Origin: Minisyncoccota bacterium
GTDB taxonomy: Bacteria; Patescibacteriota; Minisyncoccia; Phycocordibacterales; UBA2100
Reading direction: 5' to 3'
DNA length: 64,000 bases
Assembly: GCA_022842645.1 (NCBI GenBank)
Contig: JALHPE010000004.1
Span: 8,557 to 72,556 of the forward strand
Shown: positions 2,576-56,085 of the stretch, in pieces
Numbering within the stretch: position 1 is the stretch's first letter
How the letters are laid out: the number at the start of each line of letters is the position of its first letter
Notes under the pieces: model-generated
Seen by the model: the letters and a program-made list of their open reading frames with translations, nothing else
What the model was told of the DNA's origin: nothing
The model's database searches: none
Made by a program: the position numbers and the translations under genes

Positions 2576-3324
2576 ACACGCTCGCCGCGCGCCTCGAGCT
2601 CTTTAATAATCAACTCTGCGTAGGTAAGGTCACGCGGGGAATCGATATCAACATCACGCCATTTGTCGAATTGAAGCGGTAGTATTTTCGAACCACTCAT
2701 GGAGCCATCACGAATCACGTGCGGTCGAATGACATCCACATACCCTGAATGTCGCCAAATAACAGGAAGTTTTTGGCGCGGCATGTTGTAGGGCTCTGCA
2801 TGCTCGGAGTAAAAATCGCGATATTCTTCGCGCAAGATCGGCTCAAGAAAGGGTGACTCATCGCGCAGACGATACATTTTGAACGGAGTATGATGTGGTT
2901 CACAGATGGAGCGTACCGACTCCGCTTCTGGATTTTTGAGAAGCAATTCAATCCCCGCATCGATGTGCGCTGCTTTCTTAAGGGGTGTTGTGGGTCGCAA
3001 ATGAACAACCACTTCGGGAACATAACCCTCGTTTTTTTCAAGCCATTCAAGTGCATGCTGAAACACCGGAAGATCAAGTGTGTCATCCTGTGCAAGCTCT
3101 TTCGGACGCATGAATGGCACTTCAACACCAAGAGCCCGAGCTGTCTCCGCCATTTCTTCGTCGTCAGTTGAAATAATGAGGCGTGTTATATGTTTTGCAC
3201 CTTGTGCGGCTTTAACAGTGTAAAAAAGAAGTGGATTCCCCGCGCACGGCGCGATACTTTTTTTTGGGATAGATTTCGAGCCGCCACGAGCAACGATGAC
3301 GGCAAGTACGTGTGGTTTTTCCAT
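2566..3324 (-). CDS. neuA: acylneuraminate (CMP-nonulosonate) cytidylyltransferase, NeuA/PseF-like
   Basis: 252 aa with an N-terminal VIVARGGSKSIPKK motif, characteristic of CMP-NeuAc/CMP-KDO synthetase-family cytidylyltransferases. Confidence 0.78.
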   Translation of the reverse strand: MEKPHVLAVIVARGGSKSIPKKSIAPCAGNPLLFYTVKAAQGAKHITRLIISTDDEEMAETARALGVEVPFMRPKELAQDDTLDLPVFQHALEWLEKNEGYVPEVVVHLRPTTPLKKAAHIDAGIELLLKNPEAESVRSICEPHHTPFKMYRLRDESPFLEPILREEYRDFYSEHAEPYNMPRQKLPVIWRHSGYVDVIRPHVIRDGSMSGSKILPLQFDKWRDVDIDSPRDLTYAELIIKELEARGERVWE

Positions 3325-3423: not shown

Positions 3424-4413
3424 ATGGAACTGCTTGCAATAGCCCTCACCCTCGTCGCCGTCTTAGCGATGACGGCCGAAACGCTCTACCGGAAACACTT
3501 GCTCGTGCAAGGTTTTACCGAGCGTGAACTCCTCGTTACCAAGTGTGGCGTTGCCGCGCTTTGGTGCGTGATTTGGCTGGCGCTTGCCGGAGAGTGGTGG
3601 AACTCGCTCGCACCAGAAAAGACTGATGCACGTATGTGGTGGATTGCGCTTGTCGCGACGACACTCGCAAACATCGTGATCCAATTCGCAAACATGCGCG
3701 CAACGCGGCTTGCGGAAGTATCGTTCGTAGTGCCGATTAGTGCACTCACACCTGGACTCGTCGTACTCTCGGGATTTCTCATAGGAGAAATACCGAGCAT
3801 GATTGGGCTTCTTGGCATCGCACTCATCGTTCTCGGTACCTACGCGCATGCGCGCGAAGGTGCAACGCTGCGGGAATATTTCACTCCCCTCTTTTTCTGG
3901 CTTGCGTTCCGCAAAACGGACGAATTGCCGGAAAAGGAACGCGATCGTTTTCGCGCTCTGCGGTGGGCATACGCCGGCGCACTTTGTGCAACGGTCGGCC
4001 TCATGGGCGATGGACTCGTCGCGCGGCATGGTGACATGATCCTTGCCGTTGCTATTGAGCTCTCGGTTCTCGCGCTTGTATATGCACTGTTTCTACCGCG
4101 AAGCGGAGGATCGGTGTTCAACCTGCGGCGATGGGGACAGAGTGCGATTCTCGGGTGCTTGTTCGCAGTGCCGTTTCTGGCACTCGGTCTTGCATTCCGA
4201 CTCGCGCCCATCTCCTACATCGGAAGCTTGAAACGCCTTGCAATTGTTCTCACGGTTCTTGGCGGCATCTGGCTTCTGAAAGAAGCGTCCGGTGCGAGGC
4301 GCATCTTCCTCGCACTCGTGATCGTTTCGGGAGCTATGCTCTTGGTGCTTGATCCGACACAGGCGGTCGTGCTCGATTCACTCGATGCATACATTGCACG
4401 ACTTGTGTATTAA
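3424..4413 (+). CDS. EamA/DMT-family membrane transporter (10 TM, two repeats)
   Basis: The ORF track starts at 3190, but a hydrophobic two-repeat DMT-like protein begins at MELLAIALTLV (ATG 3424, with ggaaagg upstream). It is followed by a terminator. Confidence 0.55.
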   Translation: MELLAIALTLVAVLAMTAETLYRKHLLVQGFTERELLVTKCGVAALWCVIWLALAGEWWNSLAPEKTDARMWWIALVATTLANIVIQFANMRATRLAEVSFVVPISALTPGLVVLSGFLIGEIPSMIGLLGIALIVLGTYAHAREGATLREYFTPLFFWLAFRKTDELPEKERDRFRALRWAYAGALCATVGLMGDGLVARHGDMILAVAIELSVLALVYALFLPRSGGSVFNLRRWGQSAILGCLFAVPFLALGLAFRLAPISYIGSLKRLAIVLTVLGGIWLLKEASGARRIFLALVIVSGAMLLVLDPTQAVVLDSLDAYIARLVY

Positions 4414-4458: not shown

Positions 4459-5454
4459 CTAGTGGGTTGTATCCCGCCCAAACTGCTCCACAAGCGACAT
4501 ATTGTTTTTGTACCACTCAAATGTTTTTTGTAATCCGTCTTTTAAGGGGAAGCGATAGTGCCAATTCACAACATTCTTGGACTTCTCCATCGAGAGATGT
4601 TCAAGGTCATGTCGAGTGGTGGCCGCTGTTCCAATCACTTTCGGTTCAATCGCCTGTCCAGAGACTTCAATGATCGTTTTCACAAGCTCGAGCACACTTA
4701 CCGATTCACAGGTGATATTAAATGCTTCACCGCGAACCCCATCGTGATGGGCTTCTTCTGCAAGGCGAATATACCCCTCAACCGTATCCTCAACATAGAG
4801 ATATGCTTTAGTGGGTGTACCGTCTGATTTTATTACTGGCTGCTCCCCCTTTAACAGAGAAAGGATTGTTGAGGTGACAACATGTGTGAGGTGGTAGTCT
4901 CCCCCACCGTAGGTGTTCGTCTGCCGACACGCCACCGCATTCATCTTCAAGGTTTTGCCGTATGAGCGGACGATGACATCGGTGCATACTTTTGAAGCTG
5001 CATACGGGTGGTCACCATTAAGCGGAGCATCTTCGGTCGTCGGAAACTGCGTCTGCTCGCCGTAAACTGTGTTCGATGATGAGGCAACAATCCGATCAAC
5101 GCCAGTTGCACGAGCTGCTTCGAGCACCGTCCATGTGCCACGCGCGTTCACATCAAATGTGTGCGAAGCGGCTGCCTCTCCAACCTCAATCATCGATTGT
5201 CCTGCAAGATGGAAGCAGACACTGACCCCGTGCGTTTTGAACGCAGTCTCAAGTGCAGGCTGATCAAGAATACTCCCCTTAATAAAGGTGATTTTCTCGG
5301 CAAGCCCGGGATGAAGCGGAAGCGCGCCAGTCTCGCTCAAGTCAAAGCCAATCACTTTTGCACCCCGCTCCAAAAGTTTCTCAGCGAGCCAACAACCGAT
5401 AAACCCGGTAAGCCCAGTAATGAGCACTGTTTTGTCTTTCCAAAAATCATTCAT
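4459..5454 (-). CDS. NAD-dependent epimerase/dehydratase (SDR), CDP-/NDP-hexose 4,6-dehydratase-like
   Basis: 331 aa with an N-terminal TGLTGFIG Rossmann motif and YxxxK chemistry. Confidence 0.72.
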   Translation of the reverse strand: MNDFWKDKTVLITGLTGFIGCWLAEKLLERGAKVIGFDLSETGALPLHPGLAEKITFIKGSILDQPALETAFKTHGVSVCFHLAGQSMIEVGEAAASHTFDVNARGTWTVLEAARATGVDRIVASSSNTVYGEQTQFPTTEDAPLNGDHPYAASKVCTDVIVRSYGKTLKMNAVACRQTNTYGGGDYHLTHVVTSTILSLLKGEQPVIKSDGTPTKAYLYVEDTVEGYIRLAEEAHHDGVRGEAFNITCESVSVLELVKTIIEVSGQAIEPKVIGTAATTRHDLEHLSMEKSKNVVNWHYRFPLKDGLQKTFEWYKNNMSLVEQFGRDTTH

Positions 5455-5495
5455 AGCAATCAGCCGATTATATGTGGAGAGTCTGAAAACACCAA

Positions 5496-6290
5496 CTACC
5501 GCGCACGTTTACGCAGATGATACACTCCCGTGACCCCGCCATGCGGTGTTGAGCGTTCAAAGGGTACGACATGTGTCTCAATCCAATCGATATAGTCTGC
5601 AATCCGCTCTGGATGATTGGGGAGCTTTGAATCGCGCAGCACGTTTGGGATACGGCGCCGGAAATCCTCAACTAATCGCATGCCATGTCCCCAATCATGA
5701 TCAACGGTTTTCCACGAGAGTGTCATGCCGAGTTTCTTCGCCCATGCAGTGAACTCGACTGGAGAAAGGTAGTGGATGTCAGCGAGCGTAATTTTTGCAT
5801 GAAAAAGGCGCCAGAGCGTCTGTAACATATATCCGCGGGGGTTGAGCCAGTTGGGGCATGTGAGAAGGAGTGAGCCGCCCTTTTTCACATGGCGACTAAG
5901 GGTGCGTAACACGGTGAAGGGATTGTCGGTATGCTCAAGAGTACCCATCGAAATGACGACATCAAACAGGCCTTGCACACGCGCAAGATCCATTACTTCG
6001 TAGGAAAGGTTTGGGTGTTTATATTTACCGCGGGCAACCACAATCGCTTCAGGTGAATAATCTATCGCGAGCACGTGAGCACCTTTCTTTGCAATTCGAT
6101 ATGCAACTTCTCCTGTGCCACATCCAACATCAAGAACCACCTTCCCCTTCCAGGACGTCTCAGCAAGAATTGCTTTCTTATCATTAGTTAACCCTCCTTT
6201 TGAAAAGATAAGGCGTGTATAGTGCGCATCCTCGCCTTTTTTGTACGCAGCATTATATATTTTTTTAACACTCTTATTGGTACGGGTCAT
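5496..6290 (-). CDS. class I SAM-dependent methyltransferase
   Basis: 264 aa with motif I VLDVGCGTGE and an acidic motif II (LAIDYS). Confidence 0.78.
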   Translation of the reverse strand: MTRTNKSVKKIYNAAYKKGEDAHYTRLIFSKGGLTNDKKAILAETSWKGKVVLDVGCGTGEVAYRIAKKGAHVLAIDYSPEAIVVARGKYKHPNLSYEVMDLARVQGLFDVVISMGTLEHTDNPFTVLRTLSRHVKKGGSLLLTCPNWLNPRGYMLQTLWRLFHAKITLADIHYLSPVEFTAWAKKLGMTLSWKTVDHDWGHGMRLVEDFRRRIPNVLRDSKLPNHPERIADYIDWIETHVVPFERSTPHGGVTGVYHLRKRAR

Positions 6291-43074: not shown

Positions 43075-44346
43075 TCACGCCTCAACAATCTGTTCAGCCA
43101 CTTTGTAAATATCTCCTGCGCCCATGGTGATGATGAGTGTGTTTTCTGGCTCGGTGAGAAGGGCTTCGCGAATGTCGTCGAAGGAATCAAGCGCCTCGAC
43201 GTGATTCCCGGCTTCGGCGAGGGAGTGATTTGAGACGGTCTGTGTTTCCTCTGTGCGCGCTTCGTAAATAGGAGCGACTATCGCGCGGTCGGCAGTGTCT
43301 AACGCGTCCGCAAATTCTTGGAGAAAACTTTCCGTGCGGCTGTGGAGATGGGGGTGGAACGCGACGACGATGCGCTTCTCGGGGAATTTTTCGCGTGCGG
43401 CGGCAATGGTTTTTGCGACGGCGGTGGGGTGGTGTGCGTAGTCGTCGTAAACAATCGCGCCGTTCGGGGTTTCGCCTTTGTGTTCGAAGCGACGCCACGA
43501 GCCTTTGAAATTTGAAAGCGAGCGCACACCAGCCTCGAGTTCGATGTGGGGCGCGGCAGCGCGGGCGGCGCAGAGCGCCGCCCGCGCATTCTCACGATTA
43601 AACTCTCCCACAAGCTGCAATTCTCCCACCGCAGCCTGTGTGTAATCAACGATACGCGCAGAAACACCTTGTAACACCGGAATCACAGTGTGGTCGCTCG
43701 GATTCGCAACGATCACGCCGTGCGCGGGTACCCTCTTCGCTGCCTGATGAAACGTATCTTGCAGCGCATGAAGCGAAGGAAAATAATCAGTGTGATCAAG
43801 CTCGATGTTGGTGATAACCAAAATCTCGGGCGAGAGCTCGAGTACGTGATCGCGATATTCACACGCTTCGACGACAAATAAATCGTCGCGCCCCGCCAAA
43901 AAATTCGACTGAAAATCACGCACGATAGAGCCCACAATCGCTGTTGGCTTCTCACCTGCATCAGAAAGAATTTTTGCAACCATCCCCGTCACCGTTGTTT
44001 TGCCGTGTGTTCCTGTAACTGCGATCGTTTTGGCGCCGCGAGACACTTCACCCAAGACCTCAAAATAGGATTGCTGTGGAATACCCATCTCATGCGCCTT
44101 TTGCCGCTCAGGATTCTCCGCGCGCACGGCATCGCTATATATCAAAAGCTCCGTGCCCCCCGGCACTTGCCCCGCCTCGTGTCCAATCTGCACGTGCACC
44201 CCCTTTTCTTTCAAAAGCATAGTCGTCGGCGATTCTTCCCTGTCCGAGCCAGTCACACTGCGCCCGCGCGAAGCAAGCAACTGCGCAAGCGCCGACATCC
44301 CAATCCCCCCAATCCCAACCATGTGAATGTTTTGGGGGATTTTCAT
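43075..44346 (-). CDS. murC: UDP-N-acetylmuramate--L-alanine ligase MurC
   Basis: 423 aa with MVGIGGIGMSALAQLL and other Mur ligase motifs. Confidence 0.9.
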   Translation of the reverse strand: MKIPQNIHMVGIGGIGMSALAQLLASRGRSVTGSDREESPTTMLLKEKGVHVQIGHEAGQVPGGTELLIYSDAVRAENPERQKAHEMGIPQQSYFEVLGEVSRGAKTIAVTGTHGKTTVTGMVAKILSDAGEKPTAIVGSIVRDFQSNFLAGRDDLFVVEACEYRDHVLELSPEILVITNIELDHTDYFPSLHALQDTFHQAAKRVPAHGVIVANPSDHTVIPVLQGVSARIVDYTQAAVGELQLVGEFNRENARAALCAARAAAPHIELEAGVRSLSNFKGSWRRFEHKGETPNGAIVYDDYAHHPTAVAKTIAAAREKFPEKRIVVAFHPHLHSRTESFLQEFADALDTADRAIVAPIYEARTEETQTVSNHSLAEAGNHVEALDSFDDIREALLTEPENTLIITMGAGDIYKVAEQIVEA

Positions 44347-44406
44347 ATGACGAATATAACAGTTTTTGAGAAAAACTCCCCCTCGCGGGGGAGAAACGAA
44401 GAGAGT

Positions 44407-44537
44407 TGCGGGAACGAGGACCGCGAACGCCCCGCCGTCGACCCACTGGTCGTCTGACTTGACCCAGTAGGCGTACAGCCACCGACCACCGTCATTGCGG
44501 TTCGCGGTGAGGACGTTCGGGTTGCCGTCTGAGTCGA
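44407..44537 (-). repeat. non-coding ~131 bp cassette ~97% identical to the 3' end of gene 44889-45554; DGR template-repeat (TR)-like
   Basis: Direct comparison with 44894-45024 shows four internal mismatches. Three are A (cassette) to G (gene) on the coding strand, at the first base of AAC/AAT codons. The cassette frame has no start codon. Confidence 0.6.
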
Positions 44538-44814
44538 AATGTACGAGATGTCTTCCGTGCCACCGTCCATAGAAGGCTCGCGCCGATCTCCAGACTGGAT
44601 CGTATTCGGCATCTCATTCAGTAGAATAACCTACTGGGTATAATGCCCTAACATCTCGCACCAAGTATCTTCATTTTTTTGAAGTGTCTGCATACACCAC
44701 GCTACCTGAAACCGTGATCGCAGATATTCTGGATGTATGGATACTGGATTCGGCAGCGGGAAGCCGTAACCGCCCACATATTCGCCTACTACCGCGTTCA
44801 TTGTATACGAAAAC

Positions 44815-44842
44815 CCCGCCCGCGAGTACGCGGGCGGGGCAA
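44815..44842 (-). terminator. perfect 11-bp GC hairpin (CCCCGCCCGCG-tact-CGCGGGCGGGG) followed by TTTT
   Basis: It lies ~50 nt downstream of the stop of the 44889-45554 gene. It could be a plain rho-independent terminator, a DGR-type hairpin, or both. Confidence 0.6.
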
Positions 44843-44888
44843 AGGTCTAAGGGATCAAGGGCAAGTGCAAAACTCCAAGTCCCAAGTG

Positions 44889-45554
44889 CTAAATTGCGGG
44901 AACGAGGACCGCGAACGCCCCGCCGTCGACCCACTGGTCGTCTGACTTGACCCAGTAGGCGTACAGCCACCGACCACCGTCATCGCGGTCCGCGATGAGG
45001 ACGTTCGGGTCGCCGTCTGAGTCGAGAATGGTGTCATGAAGCCCTGTAATATACGAGAATCCCATTTCCTTCAACTGCTCGCCGGAAACAAGTTCACGAA
45101 TACGAGGCATGATGCCAGCCTGCGGTTTTTCGTAGCCAAACCTGAGCGCTTCTTTGCGCAGGTTCGCCGTAGTTCCATCGCGATTTTTCACAATCACGTT
45201 TCCAGGCATAATGGCAACCTGGTACGTCTGTCCGGCAATCAGACGATGCTTTTTGTCATAGCCGTCTGTGCCGACACTCAGCAAAACGGATTTCGCATAT
45301 TCGCTTATGCGATAACCCGCCGCTTCAAGACGCGCGATTTCCTCTGCGCCCGTGAGATTGAGCCCAGTGATCGTCGCAACGAAGTGACCGTGCTGATTAC
45401 GACTGATCGGCGACAAGGTATCTCCGAAGGGATTTTTGCGCTGCGTAAAGAGCGCAAGCTCGTCGAGTGTGAGAGCCCCCTTCCGAATCTTCTCGATTTG
45501 GTCGATCAATAGTCCAGCCAGGCGATCGCCCGGCAAGGTTCCGATGATTCCCAT
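44889..45554 (-). CDS. hypothetical protein (221 aa) whose last ~43 codons form a variable-repeat (VR)-like segment
   Basis: The C-terminus ...DSDGDPNVLIADRDDGGRWLYAYWVKSDDQWVDGGAFAVLVPAI is duplicated downstream with Asp codons replaced by Asn (AAC/AAT). No signal peptide is present. Confidence 0.5.
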   Translation of the reverse strand: MGIIGTLPGDRLAGLLIDQIEKIRKGALTLDELALFTQRKNPFGDTLSPISRNQHGHFVATITGLNLTGAEEIARLEAAGYRISEYAKSVLLSVGTDGYDKKHRLIAGQTYQVAIMPGNVIVKNRDGTTANLRKEALRFGYEKPQAGIMPRIRELVSGEQLKEMGFSYITGLHDTILDSDGDPNVLIADRDDGGRWLYAYWVKSDDQWVDGGAFAVLVPAI

Positions 45555-45607
45555 CAGATTGCTCCTATTTCAAGGTACTGTTGCGTAGCAGATGCCACGT
45601 CACCACA

Positions 45608-46990
45608 CTATACAATATTTTTAATTATTTGCAAAAACTGATCATTCCTCTCATACTCATTCTTAAACATACCAAACGAGGCGAAGGCGGGACTGAAGAG
45701 GATGGTGTCGCCTTCCTCGGCAAGTTCGAGAGCTTTAGAGACGGCCTGGTTGAGAGAGTTGAAGGGACCGTGGTGTGCAGGTTTTAGGTTATAGGTTTTA
45801 GGTTCTAGGGAATTCCCTAACACCTTATCCCTAGCACCTAGCACCTTTTCGGTGCCGGAGCCCGCGAGAAAGACTACAGCCTTACATGAGCGATTCACTT
45901 CCTCCACGAGTGCACTCATGTCCAACCCTTTATCTGCCCCACCCATAATAAGTAGTATGTGGGACTTCGTAAGTCCCACATTGAGTGCTTGCAAGGCAGC
46001 GATCGCTGCCTCCGGCGTCGTTGCGTTGTTGTCGTTATAGATTTTGACGCCATTAATTTCACGTACGAATTGTAAACGCCCCTCCACACCACCGAATGAA
46101 GCGAGTCCTTCGCGAATTTCTTTTTCCGACAATCCATAGGCCTCTAGCGCGGCGGCGGCAAGTGCAGCGTTCAGGCGATTGTGCTCGCCCGGCATTTGAA
46201 TCCCCCACCCTTGAGGAAGTGGCGTTTCAATATGCTTTGCGTACACATCCGGGACAGCAATCCCGGCAATGCGCTCAGCGAGCTCAGGTGTTGCAATAAG
46301 CGTATCTCCTTTCTTTTGGAAGCGGAAAATATTCGCCTTATCAGCAAAATAGGTATCCATGTCAGGATAATAATTTTGGTGATCCGGCATGAGATTGGTA
46401 AAAACGGCAATATGCGGACTCAGCTTCAAATCGCCAAACCCCTGCAACTGCCACGAATCAAGTTCCAAGACGAGCACATCGCCTTCTCGAAAATCCGGAA
46501 GCATGGCGAGTGTAGAGACACCGCGAATGTTCCCGCCAAGATGTGCTCTCCGCCGGCTGGCGGACCCCGAAGCGACAAGCGCATGGTGGATCATGTGCGC
46601 GACGGTGGATTTGCCGCGCGTGCCGGTGACACCAATAATCTTGACTCCCATTTCATATGCAAACTTCGCCGCCAGAGCGGTCGACATGTAGACAGGCACC
46701 CCCGCAGCTTTTGCTGCAGCGACTTCTTTTGAATCGAGCCGCACGCCCGCGCTTTTTATGACCATGTCGGTGTCGGTGAAATCTACGCTATCATGCCCCC
46801 CGAGATGGAATGTGACGCCGAGCCCCTCGAGCCGCGCTACTGATTCAACAAGTTCCTCATGCGTCTTCAAATCCGTCACCGTCACACGCCCGCCGCACTT
46901 GGCGATACATTCAGCGTCGCCTACTGAGCGCCCCAAAAGTCCGAGCCCGAGTATGGTGACACGCTTCCCCTTAAAAAAATCGCCGTACAT
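45608..46990 (-). CDS. murD: UDP-N-acetylmuramoylalanine--D-glutamate ligase MurD
   Basis: 460 aa with N-terminal GKRVTILGLGLLGRS and a Mur ligase central domain. Confidence 0.9.
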   Translation of the reverse strand: MYGDFFKGKRVTILGLGLLGRSVGDAECIAKCGGRVTVTDLKTHEELVESVARLEGLGVTFHLGGHDSVDFTDTDMVIKSAGVRLDSKEVAAAKAAGVPVYMSTALAAKFAYEMGVKIIGVTGTRGKSTVAHMIHHALVASGSASRRRAHLGGNIRGVSTLAMLPDFREGDVLVLELDSWQLQGFGDLKLSPHIAVFTNLMPDHQNYYPDMDTYFADKANIFRFQKKGDTLIATPELAERIAGIAVPDVYAKHIETPLPQGWGIQMPGEHNRLNAALAAAALEAYGLSEKEIREGLASFGGVEGRLQFVREINGVKIYNDNNATTPEAAIAALQALNVGLTKSHILLIMGGADKGLDMSALVEEVNRSCKAVVFLAGSGTEKVLGARDKVLGNSLEPKTYNLKPAHHGPFNSLNQAVSKALELAEEGDTILFSPAFASFGMFKNEYERNDQFLQIIKNIV

Positions 46991-53809: not shown

Positions 53810-55670
53810 CTGGTTGTATAGAATGAATCCACGAGCAGCTTCCGCTACCCGTGCCTTGTTACGACTTACTCTTTGTCATTGAGTTTGCCTTGATGCATCG
53901 CAAGGATGCGCTTCGGGCACTCCCAACTTCCCTGAGTTGACGGGCGGATTGCTACCACTGAAGGCTCAGTGTGCGTCCCCACGTAGCGTACGGATTTCCC
54001 GTACTACGCGAGTTCGATATGTTCTATCGATTTTGTCCTTCATTACTCTTTCGAATAACTACTACGACTCTGCTGACTTCTCATGACTGATTTGGTGCCT
54101 TAAATCATGAGATCTCCTTCGGTCATTTTGATTTCTGTTCCATGCATCCATCCGAGCTTTTTTGCATACTTCCCCATTACTCACCGACTGGGTCGTATGC
54201 ACTCTTTCTGTATTGCTACAGGGAGGCTGCGTTTTGCTACTAGGACTCTCGGCACAAAACCTCGCGATTTTATGCTGTCCGTTCACTACATCTTTCGATG
54301 ATCCGATTTTAACGGATTAGAAAACAAAACTACGAAGCACTTTTCTATGTTGAGTACAAGGCTTGAGAACGTATTCACCGCGGTGTGGCTGACCCGCGAT
54401 TACTAGTGATTCCAGCTTCATGAGGTCGGGTTGCAGACCTCAATCCGAACTGACGCCGCTTTTATAGATTTGCTCCGGGTTACCCCATTGCGCCTTGTTG
54501 TAACGGCGATTGTAGCGCGTGTGCAGCCCAAGATATCAGAGGGACATGCTGACTTGGCGTCATCTCCACCTTCCTCCCCCGTGAGGGGGCAGTCTCGCCT
54601 GACAAATATAACAGGCAACGAAGGTTGCGTTCGTTACCCCACTGAAGGGAACGATTCAAACCACGAACTGACGACAGCCATGCATCACCTGTCCTACACC
54701 CTCGAAGGCTTCCTAGCTTTCGCTAGGCGTGCAGTAGGATTTCTAACCTTGGTAAGGTTCTTCGCTTAGCGACGAATTAAGCCACACGCTCCACCACTTG
54801 TGCAAGCCCCCGTCTATTCCTTTGAGTTTTAGTCTTGCGACCGTACTACCCAGGCGGATAACTTAACGCGTTAGCTTCGACTCAGAGAGGGTCGATACTC
54901 CCTAAATCCAGTTATCATCGTTTAGGGCGTGGACTACCGGGGTATCTAATCCCGTTCGCTACCCACGCTTTCGTGCTTGAGTGTCAGAAATGTGCCAGTG
55001 AATTGCTTTCGCTTTCGGTGTTCCCCATGATATCAACGGATTTCACCCCTACACCATGAGTTCCATTCACCTCTCACATCCTCGAGTCATGCCGTTTCGA
55101 GTGCGATTCCAGAGTTGAGCCCTGGGATTTAACACTCGACTAACATGACCACCTACGCACCCTTTACGCCCAATGATTCCGGGTAATGCTCGGGGCCTCT
55201 GTATTACCGCTCCTGCTGGCACAGAGTTAGGAGCCCCTTATTCATGAGGTAACGTCAATTACTTCCTCCCTCATAAAAGGTGTTTACGTCCCGAAGGACT
55301 TCATCCACCACGCGGCGTCGCTCGATCAGGCTTTCGCCCATTGTCGAATATTCTCGACTGCAGCCTCCCGTAGGAGTATGGACCGTATCTCAATTCCATC
55401 GATGGGGGTCAGCCTCTCAGCTCCCCTAAACGTCATAGCCTTGGTGAGCCATTACCTCACCAACTAGCTGATATTACGCAGGCCGCTCCAGAAGCGATAA
55501 ATCTTTAGTCTTTCGACACCATCGGGAATTACCCCGCCTTTCGGCGAGCTGTGCCCGACTTCTGGGTACGTTCCTACGCGTTACTATCTCGTCTGCCGGT
55601 TACCTTGCGGTCCCCTTGACTTGCATGCCCTATCCACGCCGCCAGCATTCACCCTGAGCTAGGATCAAAC
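53810..55670 (-). rRNA. rrs: 16S rRNA gene (~1.86 kb) containing a ~0.4 kb insertion near E. coli position ~1395; 3' end atypical
   Basis: Conserved blocks are found on the minus strand. The 5' end is AGAGTTTGATCCTAGCTCAG (~55663). The 515 region is GTGCCAGCAGGAGCGGTAATAC, the 785 region GGATTAGATACCCCGGTAGTCC, and the 907 and 1050 regions are present. ...GTACAAGGC (54347) and CCGCCCGTCA (53940) are separated by ~395 nt. Helix 45 with a GGAA loop is present, but the tail reads GGATTCATTCTATAC instead of GGATCACCTCCTT. Confidence 0.85.
53949..54345 (-). other. intervening sequence/putative intron inside the 16S gene (between the GTAC and ACACCGCCCGT halves of the 1390-1405 region)
   Basis: The flanks abut universally conserved 16S sequence. 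The insert is ~395 nt, too short for a homing-endonuclease ORF. Confidence 0.6.
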
Positions 55671-56085
55671 TCTCAGTTAAAGACGGAGAAATTAATCTCC
55701 GAACTTTTTTGGTTGGACGGAACAAAAGAGTGTACCTTCATGCACTGCAATGGGAGGAAGAGACGAACCTATGCTCGTAGAGCTAGTCTCGGCTCAGACG
55801 CTCAGCGCATCCATAACCTATCTCGCCCCTTCCATTGCAGCGCACAAAGATTTTCCGCCCGAATGAAATTCGTTCGGATAAACTTTTGTTCCTACTTACT
55901 TTACTTTCTTGTGTTCTTGCTTTTTGTGTGTGTTCCGAACGCGCAATTAAAAATTGTGCGCTCGAATAGTTTCTTACTCTCTTCAATTTTCAAAGGTCAC
56001 ACCACATAACGAAAAAAGCCACGTGGGATCCGTAATCTCACGAGGCTCTAGATCAGTAGAGTGAGATGGATAGGCATAGTATAGC

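Follow-up and report, generated by a model that had tools for sequence, protein, structure and literature searches.

Can a diversity-generating retroelement (DGR) remain at work at a locus that has no reverse transcriptase (RT)? This question is raised by a stretch of 64,000 nucleotides from a Minisyncoccota bacterium (NCBI GenBank assembly GCA_022842645.1, contig JALHPE010000004.1, positions 8,557 to 72,556 of the forward strand), which we call the window throughout and in whose coordinates all features are given. A first-pass annotation made from the letters alone had claimed a DGR-like pair of template repeat (TR) and variable repeat (VR) in a murC-murD interval without an RT gene. Here, we propose, at a probability of roughly 60%, that this cassette still carries its target gene together with a template-RNA gene that is self-contained, that the avd-RT module once placed after the TR is gone, and that the locus is serviced in trans. 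The proposal is based on homology to complete DGRs, on sister loci that also lack RT and are diversified, and on a structured RNA that is intact in the window.

A repeat pair homologous to complete retroelements

A repeat search found a single 132-nt direct repeat, at 44406-44537 and 44894-45025, with 128 of 132 positions identical (97%) and 488 nt from start to start; no third copy was found within the 64-kb window. On the minus strand, the gene-side copy forms the last 43 codons of an open reading frame (ORF) at 44889-45554 (221 aa). The sequences upstream of the two copies are unrelated, and downstream they diverge directly after ...CCCGCAA. Thus, the cassette described in the first pass as ~131 bp and ~97% identical to the gene's last ~43 codons, with unrelated sequence upstream of the shared block, stands at a slightly adjusted length. 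Its account of the mismatches also holds on the minus strand: from cassette to gene these are AAC>GAC, ACC>ATC, AAC>GAC and AAT>GAT (A>G, C>T, A>G and A>G), so that three of the four are A-to-G changes at the first position of Asn codons and the fourth is C-to-T. The cassette contains 24 A in 132 nt, and the probability of at least three of four mismatches falling at A is 0.019, or 4e-5 for the first base of its four AAY codons. Taken alone, this A-bias is only suggestive, every one of the four changes being a transition.

A direct repeat of 132 nt whose four mismatches are transitions would also fit a plain partial duplication of the gene's 3' end, with no retroelement involved. What speaks on this point is homology, on which, rather than on the four mismatches (weak alone), the DGR reading is supported. 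The target homologue P0031 belongs to a complete DGR at locus L005, where the VR (3575-3703) and TR (4021-4149) are 87% identical and have 17 mismatches, 16 of them at TR adenines, and where an RVT_1 gene (4559-5566) carries the DGR-type motifs LGNLTSQ and YADD. In L005, avd sits between TR and RT and is read from the other strand, the same arrangement being seen in 80 of 94 listed cassettes (these and the following cassette statistics, on 89, 90 and 94 cassettes and on 14 that lack RT, are drawn from the listed matches to an 18-mer described below, at least 119 in total). The minus strand of the window aligns with L005 over the VR, the entire spacer between VR and TR, the TR itself and the post-TR hairpin, and the homology ends there. 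Because the alignment runs from the VR through the post-TR hairpin, the cassette is a TR in the position of a TR and no stray duplication.

The layout of complete DGRs of Patescibacteria, or Candidate Phyla Radiation (CPR), is target/VR, structured RNA, TR, stem-loop, reverse-strand avd and RT. The TR/VR mismatches in such DGRs fall at TR adenines in 16/17 to 22/22 cases, the related listed cassettes (n=89) have a median of 17 A mismatches vs 1 non-A, and the RT family is 65-78% identical across hosts with more than 8,000 matches. A plain duplication is refuted by the homology of the copy and of both its flanks to the TR, RNA domain and stem-loop of more than 100 listed DGR cassettes with adjacent RT and avd, in addition to the relatives with A-only mismatches, and we give it next to no credence. 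By this comparison of sequences, the window locus is a genuine DGR cassette with a true TR and a true VR. The claimed DGR-like pair is thus borne out by homology to complete DGRs, along with the lectin fold of the target and the hypervariability of its family in the VR region (see below). Set against the features of a DGR, the window has an A-biased repeat (3/4 mismatches at TR-A, weak alone), a TR flanked by RNA elements homologous to those of RT-bearing cassettes of the same lineage (the upstream domain and the post-TR stem-loop), and a VR at the 3' end of a gene for a variation-tolerant fold; it has neither an RT beside the TR nor an accessory avd.

The absence of RT from the window, claimed in the first pass, was confirmed: tblastn with the DGR RT of the related locus L005 gave a best E of 1.3 and a motif scan gave nothing credible. 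Avd is absent from the window as well by tblastn with the L005 Avd (best E=0.32), a query that detects avd in 80 of 94 related cassettes. The three nearest homologues of the target (L010, L011 and L012; 70-79% protein identity; independent samples) have the order murD-target/VR-spacer-TR-murC, which leaves no space for an RT. Their TR/VR pairs look active, that of L010 having 15 of 15 mismatches at TR adenines. In addition, the same 1,503-nt locus was recovered from two sequencing runs as L012 and L135, which differ at six positions, all six in the VR at TR adenines, the TR and the rest being identical. This RT-less, Avd-less cassette type is diversified by adenine mutagenesis in sister lineages. 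Since the allelic differences at such a locus are A-only, the enzymes must be encoded elsewhere in the sister genomes. Of the explanations offered in the first pass (a trans-served pair, a decayed DGR or an unusual target), the first is thereby directly supported for the clade.

Other cassettes of the lineage resemble the window in this respect. L046, to all appearance fully active, has its own TR and VR, with 18 of 18 mismatches at A and no RT or avd, and ~23 kb away on the same contig lies L081, an RT-bearing cassette with a different TR. Both RT and avd are absent from 14 genuine listed cassettes with enough flank (~13% of the cassettes of one widespread lineage). How such cassettes arise is visible in L132, in which (2745-3003) an avd remnant (query residues 80-137, E=2e-9) and an RT remnant (residues 254-326, E=6e-5), both C-terminal parts, flank a deletion just past the TR; the TR and VR still differ by 11 A-only mismatches. 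Such remnants around a deletion show that RT-less cassettes come from complete ones that lost sequence. An RT-adjacent TR of the Campbellbacteria assembly MFAE01 (L113 1788-1915) matches a VR on a second contig (L056 60-187) with 17 A-only mismatches, and L056 has kept part of the upstream RNA domain with no TR of its own. A metagenome scan with a 21-mer from the TR end returned only the L011 contig, already known, and a chance match, L133.

The target protein and the template RNA

What does the cassette diversify? The target gene (44889..45554, minus strand) is an intact ORF for a variable protein of 221 aa in which no Pfam domain was found, and its 59 homologues are nearly all unnamed proteins of Parcubacteria/CPR metagenomes. 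A structure model gives a C-type lectin fold, one of the two folds that the first-pass annotation had named as fitting. The VR (44894..45025, minus strand) lies in a region that is hypervariable among otherwise identical homologues: in the family alignment, scaffolds are identical and residues are scrambled at interspersed positions of the last ~45 aa (P0021, P0023, P0025, P0027, P0029 and P0033), and the variants P0003/P0062 and P0021-P0033 differ almost wholly within the VR. The 34-nt 3' end common to VR and TR (44894..44927, minus strand) is 74% G+C, as the GC-rich shared part noticed earlier would have it, and its flanks diverge. Between TR and VR it is largely invariant in the window, L010, L011 and L012 and nearly so in L005, and it presumably acts as the site for initiation of mutagenic homing (IMH).

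Two further sets of homologues bear on how such targets are distributed. Residues 1-43 of the target (45426-45554, minus strand; MGxIGTLPGDRLAGL...LALFTQRKNPF) form a module that is also found on P0049-P0059, at up to 93% identity, and the C-termini of those proteins are unrelated to that of the window target but VR-like. P0049, a bearer of the module, belongs to the RT-less TR/VR cassette L132. This suggests that a common N-terminal module is shuffled among different variable domains. The target homologues of L001, L003, L007 and L009 lie in quite different gene neighbourhoods, where neither a TR copy nor an RT was found within 10 kb, and L088, which shares an assembly with L007, has a TR that does not match the L007 VR. 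Either the four are remote targets whose TR is unseen, or they are former targets now fixed.

Directly upstream of the TR lies a conserved structured RNA domain (44538..44793, minus strand) that retains all 45 consensus pairs in the window. It contains an invariant 18-mer, AAATGAAGATACTTGGTG (44659..44676, minus strand), and a scan of GTDB genomes with this 18-mer found at least 119 stretches, 108 of those listed being DGR cassettes; the other 11 of 119 were chance matches in unrelated phyla and were excluded. The listed cassettes are mostly from Patescibacteria, along with some metagenome-assembled genomes labelled Bdellovibrionales or Gammaproteobacteria, and the adjacent RT starts ~490-900 nt downstream of the 18-mer, typically 600-700 nt. 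RNAalifold on 90 listed sequences gave 45 pairs in 8 helices, with 94.4% of cells paired vs 36-51% when the partners were slid, and 826 compensatory cells vs 102-208 in the slid controls; none of 500 shuffles reached the observed values. A 12-bp long-range helix links sequence just past the 18-mer with sequence just before the TR. An observation in its own right is that more than 100 DGR cassettes (GTDB loci L015-L131; L005 3793-4037) carry, directly before the TR, a strongly covarying RNA of ~230-260 nt.

The RNA domain of the window and of eight complete relatives has no Rfam family at gathering threshold. The best sub-threshold match is RT-7 (RF03028), at 20.4 bits for the window and 25.4 bits for L005 with a gathering threshold of 116.8, so that the domain is not a member, and it has blocks such as GCCAGAGU and AGUGUGC in common with RT-7. 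RT-7 is one of the motifs RT-1 to RT-19 found near RT genes, some of which were proposed as DGR parts (Weinberg et al. 2017, PMC5737381). In the window, the apical loop of one hairpin carries a 25-nt insertion (44615..44639, minus strand) that is absent from L005 and L010-L012. This insertion is tolerated, since a near-identical one recurs in L116, a cassette where an RT lies next to the TR and all 16 A mismatches are A-only. With the insertion set aside, the RNA core is ~94-97% identical to those of L010-L012 (~97% of aligned positions match L012), vs 75-77% for murD and 76-82% for the target scaffold.

Could the spacer or the cassette encode a protein instead? An Avd-like small protein, or a 56-aa ORF at 44631-44801, was considered for the VR-TR spacer and rejected, as indels between relatives, including a change of poly-A length, shift the frames and none stays open. 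The cassette had been called non-coding, and an 89-aa ATG ORF (44343-44612, minus strand) does overlap it in a frame that differs from that of the gene copy; the label holds, because relatives preserve no reading frame there. No promoter for the TR RNA came out of a simple sigma-70 scan. By visual impression alone, an A/T-rich box lies just upstream of the conserved GGUAGUAGG start. We infer that the 5' domain, the TR and a 3' stem-loop with T-run form an RNA gene transcribed independently of the RT, which would explain why the cassette is separable from its enzymes.

The stem-loop after the TR (44376..44395, minus strand) reads UCCCCC-GCGA-GGGGGA followed by a T-run and is terminator-like. 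Its structure is kept in L010, L011, L005 and L132 with altered loop and stem sequence, the stem being 6-7 bp and the loop GCGA in the window and UUCG in L005. Its position matches that of the stem-loop 'just downstream of TR' that binds Avd in many DGRs, including CPR ones (Handa et al.). A second hairpin follows the target gene (44813..44840, minus strand), with a G+C stem of 11-12 bp, loop TACT and a T-run. The first-pass annotation had likened its 11-bp GC stem, ~50 nt past the VR, to the DGR homing hairpin. The hairpin itself is real, with a perfect 11-bp G+C stem at 44814-44839, ~50 nt past the target stop codon, followed by TTTT, but it looks like an intrinsic terminator. The published DGR hairpin has a 7-10 bp stem, a GRNA loop and a distance of 4-34 bp from the VR (Guo et al. 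2011, PMC3240598), and we prefer a terminator here because the loop is not GRNA and the distance is beyond that range. L005 has a hairpin of different sequence at the same post-target position, also with a T-run after it. The resemblance of DGR hairpins to terminators was remarked on by Guo et al. themselves (PMC3240598).

An eroded template and what it implies

How active is the cassette in the window itself? The TR (44406..44537, minus strand), at the TR position of homologous cassettes, seems to be partly overwritten with VR-type sequence. The listed cassettes (n=89) have TR/VR identities of 77-94.4% (median 85.7%), TRs with 26% A, and VRs in which half of the TR adenines differ. The window TR is 18% A and has 24 adenines vs 34 in L010 and L005, and its four AAY codons compare with 10 in L010 and L005 and 6 in L011 and L012. 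Taking the majority of the L010, L011, L012 and L005 TRs as the ancestral state, the window TR has changed at 10 of 33 ancestral-A sites vs 6 of 99 other sites (p=7.6e-4). All ten A losses lie in repeat positions 47-103, at 10 of the 19 sites there vs 0 of 14 elsewhere (p=0.0014), and every derived TR base (16/16) equals the base of the window's own VR. Several of the changes hit both adenines of a codon (AAT>GGT, AAT>GGC, AAY>GTC).

The 53% A loss at positions 47-103 is the same as the median share of TR adenines found changed in the VR across the 89 listed cassettes. Since this loss, with 5% change elsewhere, looks like a VR relative to its TR, the simplest reading is that segment 47-103 of the TR was replaced by mutagenised sequence. 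This may have happened by VR-to-TR gene conversion across the 132-bp repeat, or a 3'-anchored homing event may have hit the TR, with ordinary TR-to-VR transfer thereafter. The cassette is structurally competent, but where about 15^10 variants were once within its reach, it is now limited to about 15^4. Three of the four remaining AAY codons differ between TR and VR.

An assembly artefact, with VR reads threaded through the TR locus or the reverse, could mimic both the near-identity and the TR erosion. The assembly is of metagenome type, the copies are 488 bp apart with long exact stretches, and VRs are polymorphic in populations. However, the switch from TR to VR sequence is confined to 4 nt (positions 43-47), too short for a k-mer crossover if the TR had kept its AAY codons there, and the independent assemblies of L011 and L012 likewise show a partial loss of A (6 AAY codons). 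We consider an artefact very improbable.

Several observations weigh against a cassette that is still serviced in trans. Neither RT nor Avd was found in the 64-kb window searched; the TR/VR identity of 97% lies above the range of the 89 listed cassettes, with only 3 of 24 TR adenines differing; all four mismatches are transitions, one of them at a non-A position, and drift after homogenisation would produce the same picture. The target departs from its family at 7 conserved positions vs a family median of 4, including R127G and F216V at two nearly invariant residues, F216V being encoded in TR and VR alike. The TR RNA has only a putative promoter, and the priming mechanism is likewise putative.

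Most of these points would fit an orphaned relic: a DGR-derived locus in a genome without a DGR RT or Avd, its TR and VR homogenised by gene conversion and now drifting by point mutation, its target fixed. Besides the missing enzymes, the highest TR/VR identity among the cassettes compared, an A-poor TR, the transition-only mismatches and the two substitutions at nearly invariant residues, a relic would have company in some other RT-less cassettes that have plainly decayed: most mismatches of L018, L028 and L058 are non-A, and several cassettes have an RNA pairing of 62-79%. A relic fits less well with an RNA domain that keeps 45 of 45 pairs and matches L012 at ~97% of aligned positions, with an intact ORF, with three of the four mismatches opening an AAY codon, of which four survive (P=4e-5), and with sister lineages of the same RT-less layout that are demonstrably diversified. 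We regard a relic as quite possible, if somewhat doubtful.

Servicing in trans, which we prefer, has in favour of its current operation the same intact ORF and complete RNA pairing, the differences at three of four AAY codons and the activity of the sister lineages. On this reading, an RNA of ~440 nt (5' domain, TR and 3' stem-loop) would be transcribed on its own and bound by an RT-Avd complex encoded elsewhere in the genome. The RNA would be copied into cDNA with misincorporation opposite adenines, and the cDNA would then replace the VR and recode the ligand-binding face of the C-type-lectin-fold protein. A bolder version, which we put forward as unlikely, is that stand-alone 'satellite' cassettes, each a target gene joined to an autonomous template-RNA gene that brings its own structured handle but no RT or Avd, are stably inherited, with one shared RT-Avd serving several unrelated templates in trans, and that the TR can be rewritten from a selected VR, making it an updatable memory and not an invariant master copy. 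Such rewriting, whether through back-copy from VR to TR or through homing into the TR, would fix successful residues in the template and restrict the searches that follow.

The neighbouring genes agree with the murC-murD interval named in the first pass, Pfam placing the locus between two Mur ligases. Upstream lies a murD-type ligase (45608..46990, minus strand; MurD-like_N, Mur_ligase_M and Mur_ligase_C), the same neighbour as in L010, L011 and L012; its 3' part contains a short tandem, partly palindromic repeat (AGGTTTTAGGTTAT twice, then its complement) at 45779-45846. On the other side lies a murC-type ligase (43075..44346, minus strand; Pfam), with the same junction in L010, L011 and L012. 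Its start codon is 59 nt past the TR, at the site of avd and RT in complete relatives. In L005 (4150-4620), the last codons of avd overlap the post-TR stem-loop. Judged by eye, the window retains only this avd tail overlapping the stem-loop, at about 44360-44405.

At a distance from the cassette, the 16S rRNA gene of the window (53830-55680, minus strand) is interrupted, its body lying at 54311-55680 and its 3' end (model positions 1390-1520) at 53830-53947. The interrupting stretch of ~385 nt has a match to the Rfam family group-II-D1D4-1 at 54035-54114 (41.7 bits), and no ORF in it reaches 120 aa. It is known that 16S genes of CPR bacteria can carry insertions.

Relation to known retroelements

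In light of this proposal, how does the cassette compare with known DGRs? DGRs are abundant in CPR bacteria and well documented there, as the 'CPR set' of Wu et al. 2018 (PMC5758913) and DGR 'clade 2' of Roux et al. 2021 (PMC8144416). The window is like these in the host group of its relatives, a small target without recognisable domains, a VR at the 3' end, an AAY-rich TR and A-specific mismatches. It differs in having no RT or avd in cis, in murC abutting the TR, and in the loss of most mutable TR adenines.

The DGR of Bordetella phage BPP-1 (mtd-VR, avd, TR, brt) shares with the window a TR/VR pair, adenine mutagenesis, a C-type-lectin target and a G+C-rich shared 3' end. Both also have a hairpin past the VR, and in BPP-1 the RNA upstream and downstream of the TR, with a stem-loop just past it, is needed by RT-Avd. 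In contrast to BPP-1, the window's class encodes avd on the opposite strand and has its conserved structure mainly before the TR, and the enzymes are absent from the window, whose VR hairpin has a non-GRNA loop, is ~50 nt off and carries a T-run.

Remote targets and a supply of avd, TR and RT in trans are known from Treponema denticola (PMC4891356) and from Wu et al. 2018 (PMC5758913). For incomplete DGR loci of Thiohalocapsa PB-PSB1, Doré et al. 2024 (PMC10907252) discuss a possible diversification 'by an RT and/or TR encoded elsewhere'. The likeness is that a target is diversified without an adjacent RT, with RT and accessory functions coming from elsewhere. The difference is that known remote targets normally use an RT-adjacent TR, whereas in the window, L046, L012 and L132 the RT-less locus bears its own distinct TR and a complete flanking RNA scaffold. 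With a TR of its own at the RT-less locus, the enzyme would need to accept a second template RNA. What goes beyond known systems is, thus, an enzyme-less cassette with its own TR and full RNA scaffold, syntenic across diverged lineages and with A-specific diversification at the level of alleles, and also a template partly rewritten with VR-type sequence.

Surveys anchored on RT miss RT-less loci, as Roux et al. 2021 state (PMC8144416). They are hence blind to loci like that of the window, and at least some RT-less cassettes are still diversified. If one RT-Avd uses several template RNAs, CPR bacteria have more hypervariable proteins than has been estimated, and if RT-Avd does accept separate templates, the RNA domain upstream of the TR would be a candidate recognition handle that could be engineered. 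In turn, a TR partly converted to VR sequence pictures how a DGR loses, or deliberately narrows, its capacity for diversification.

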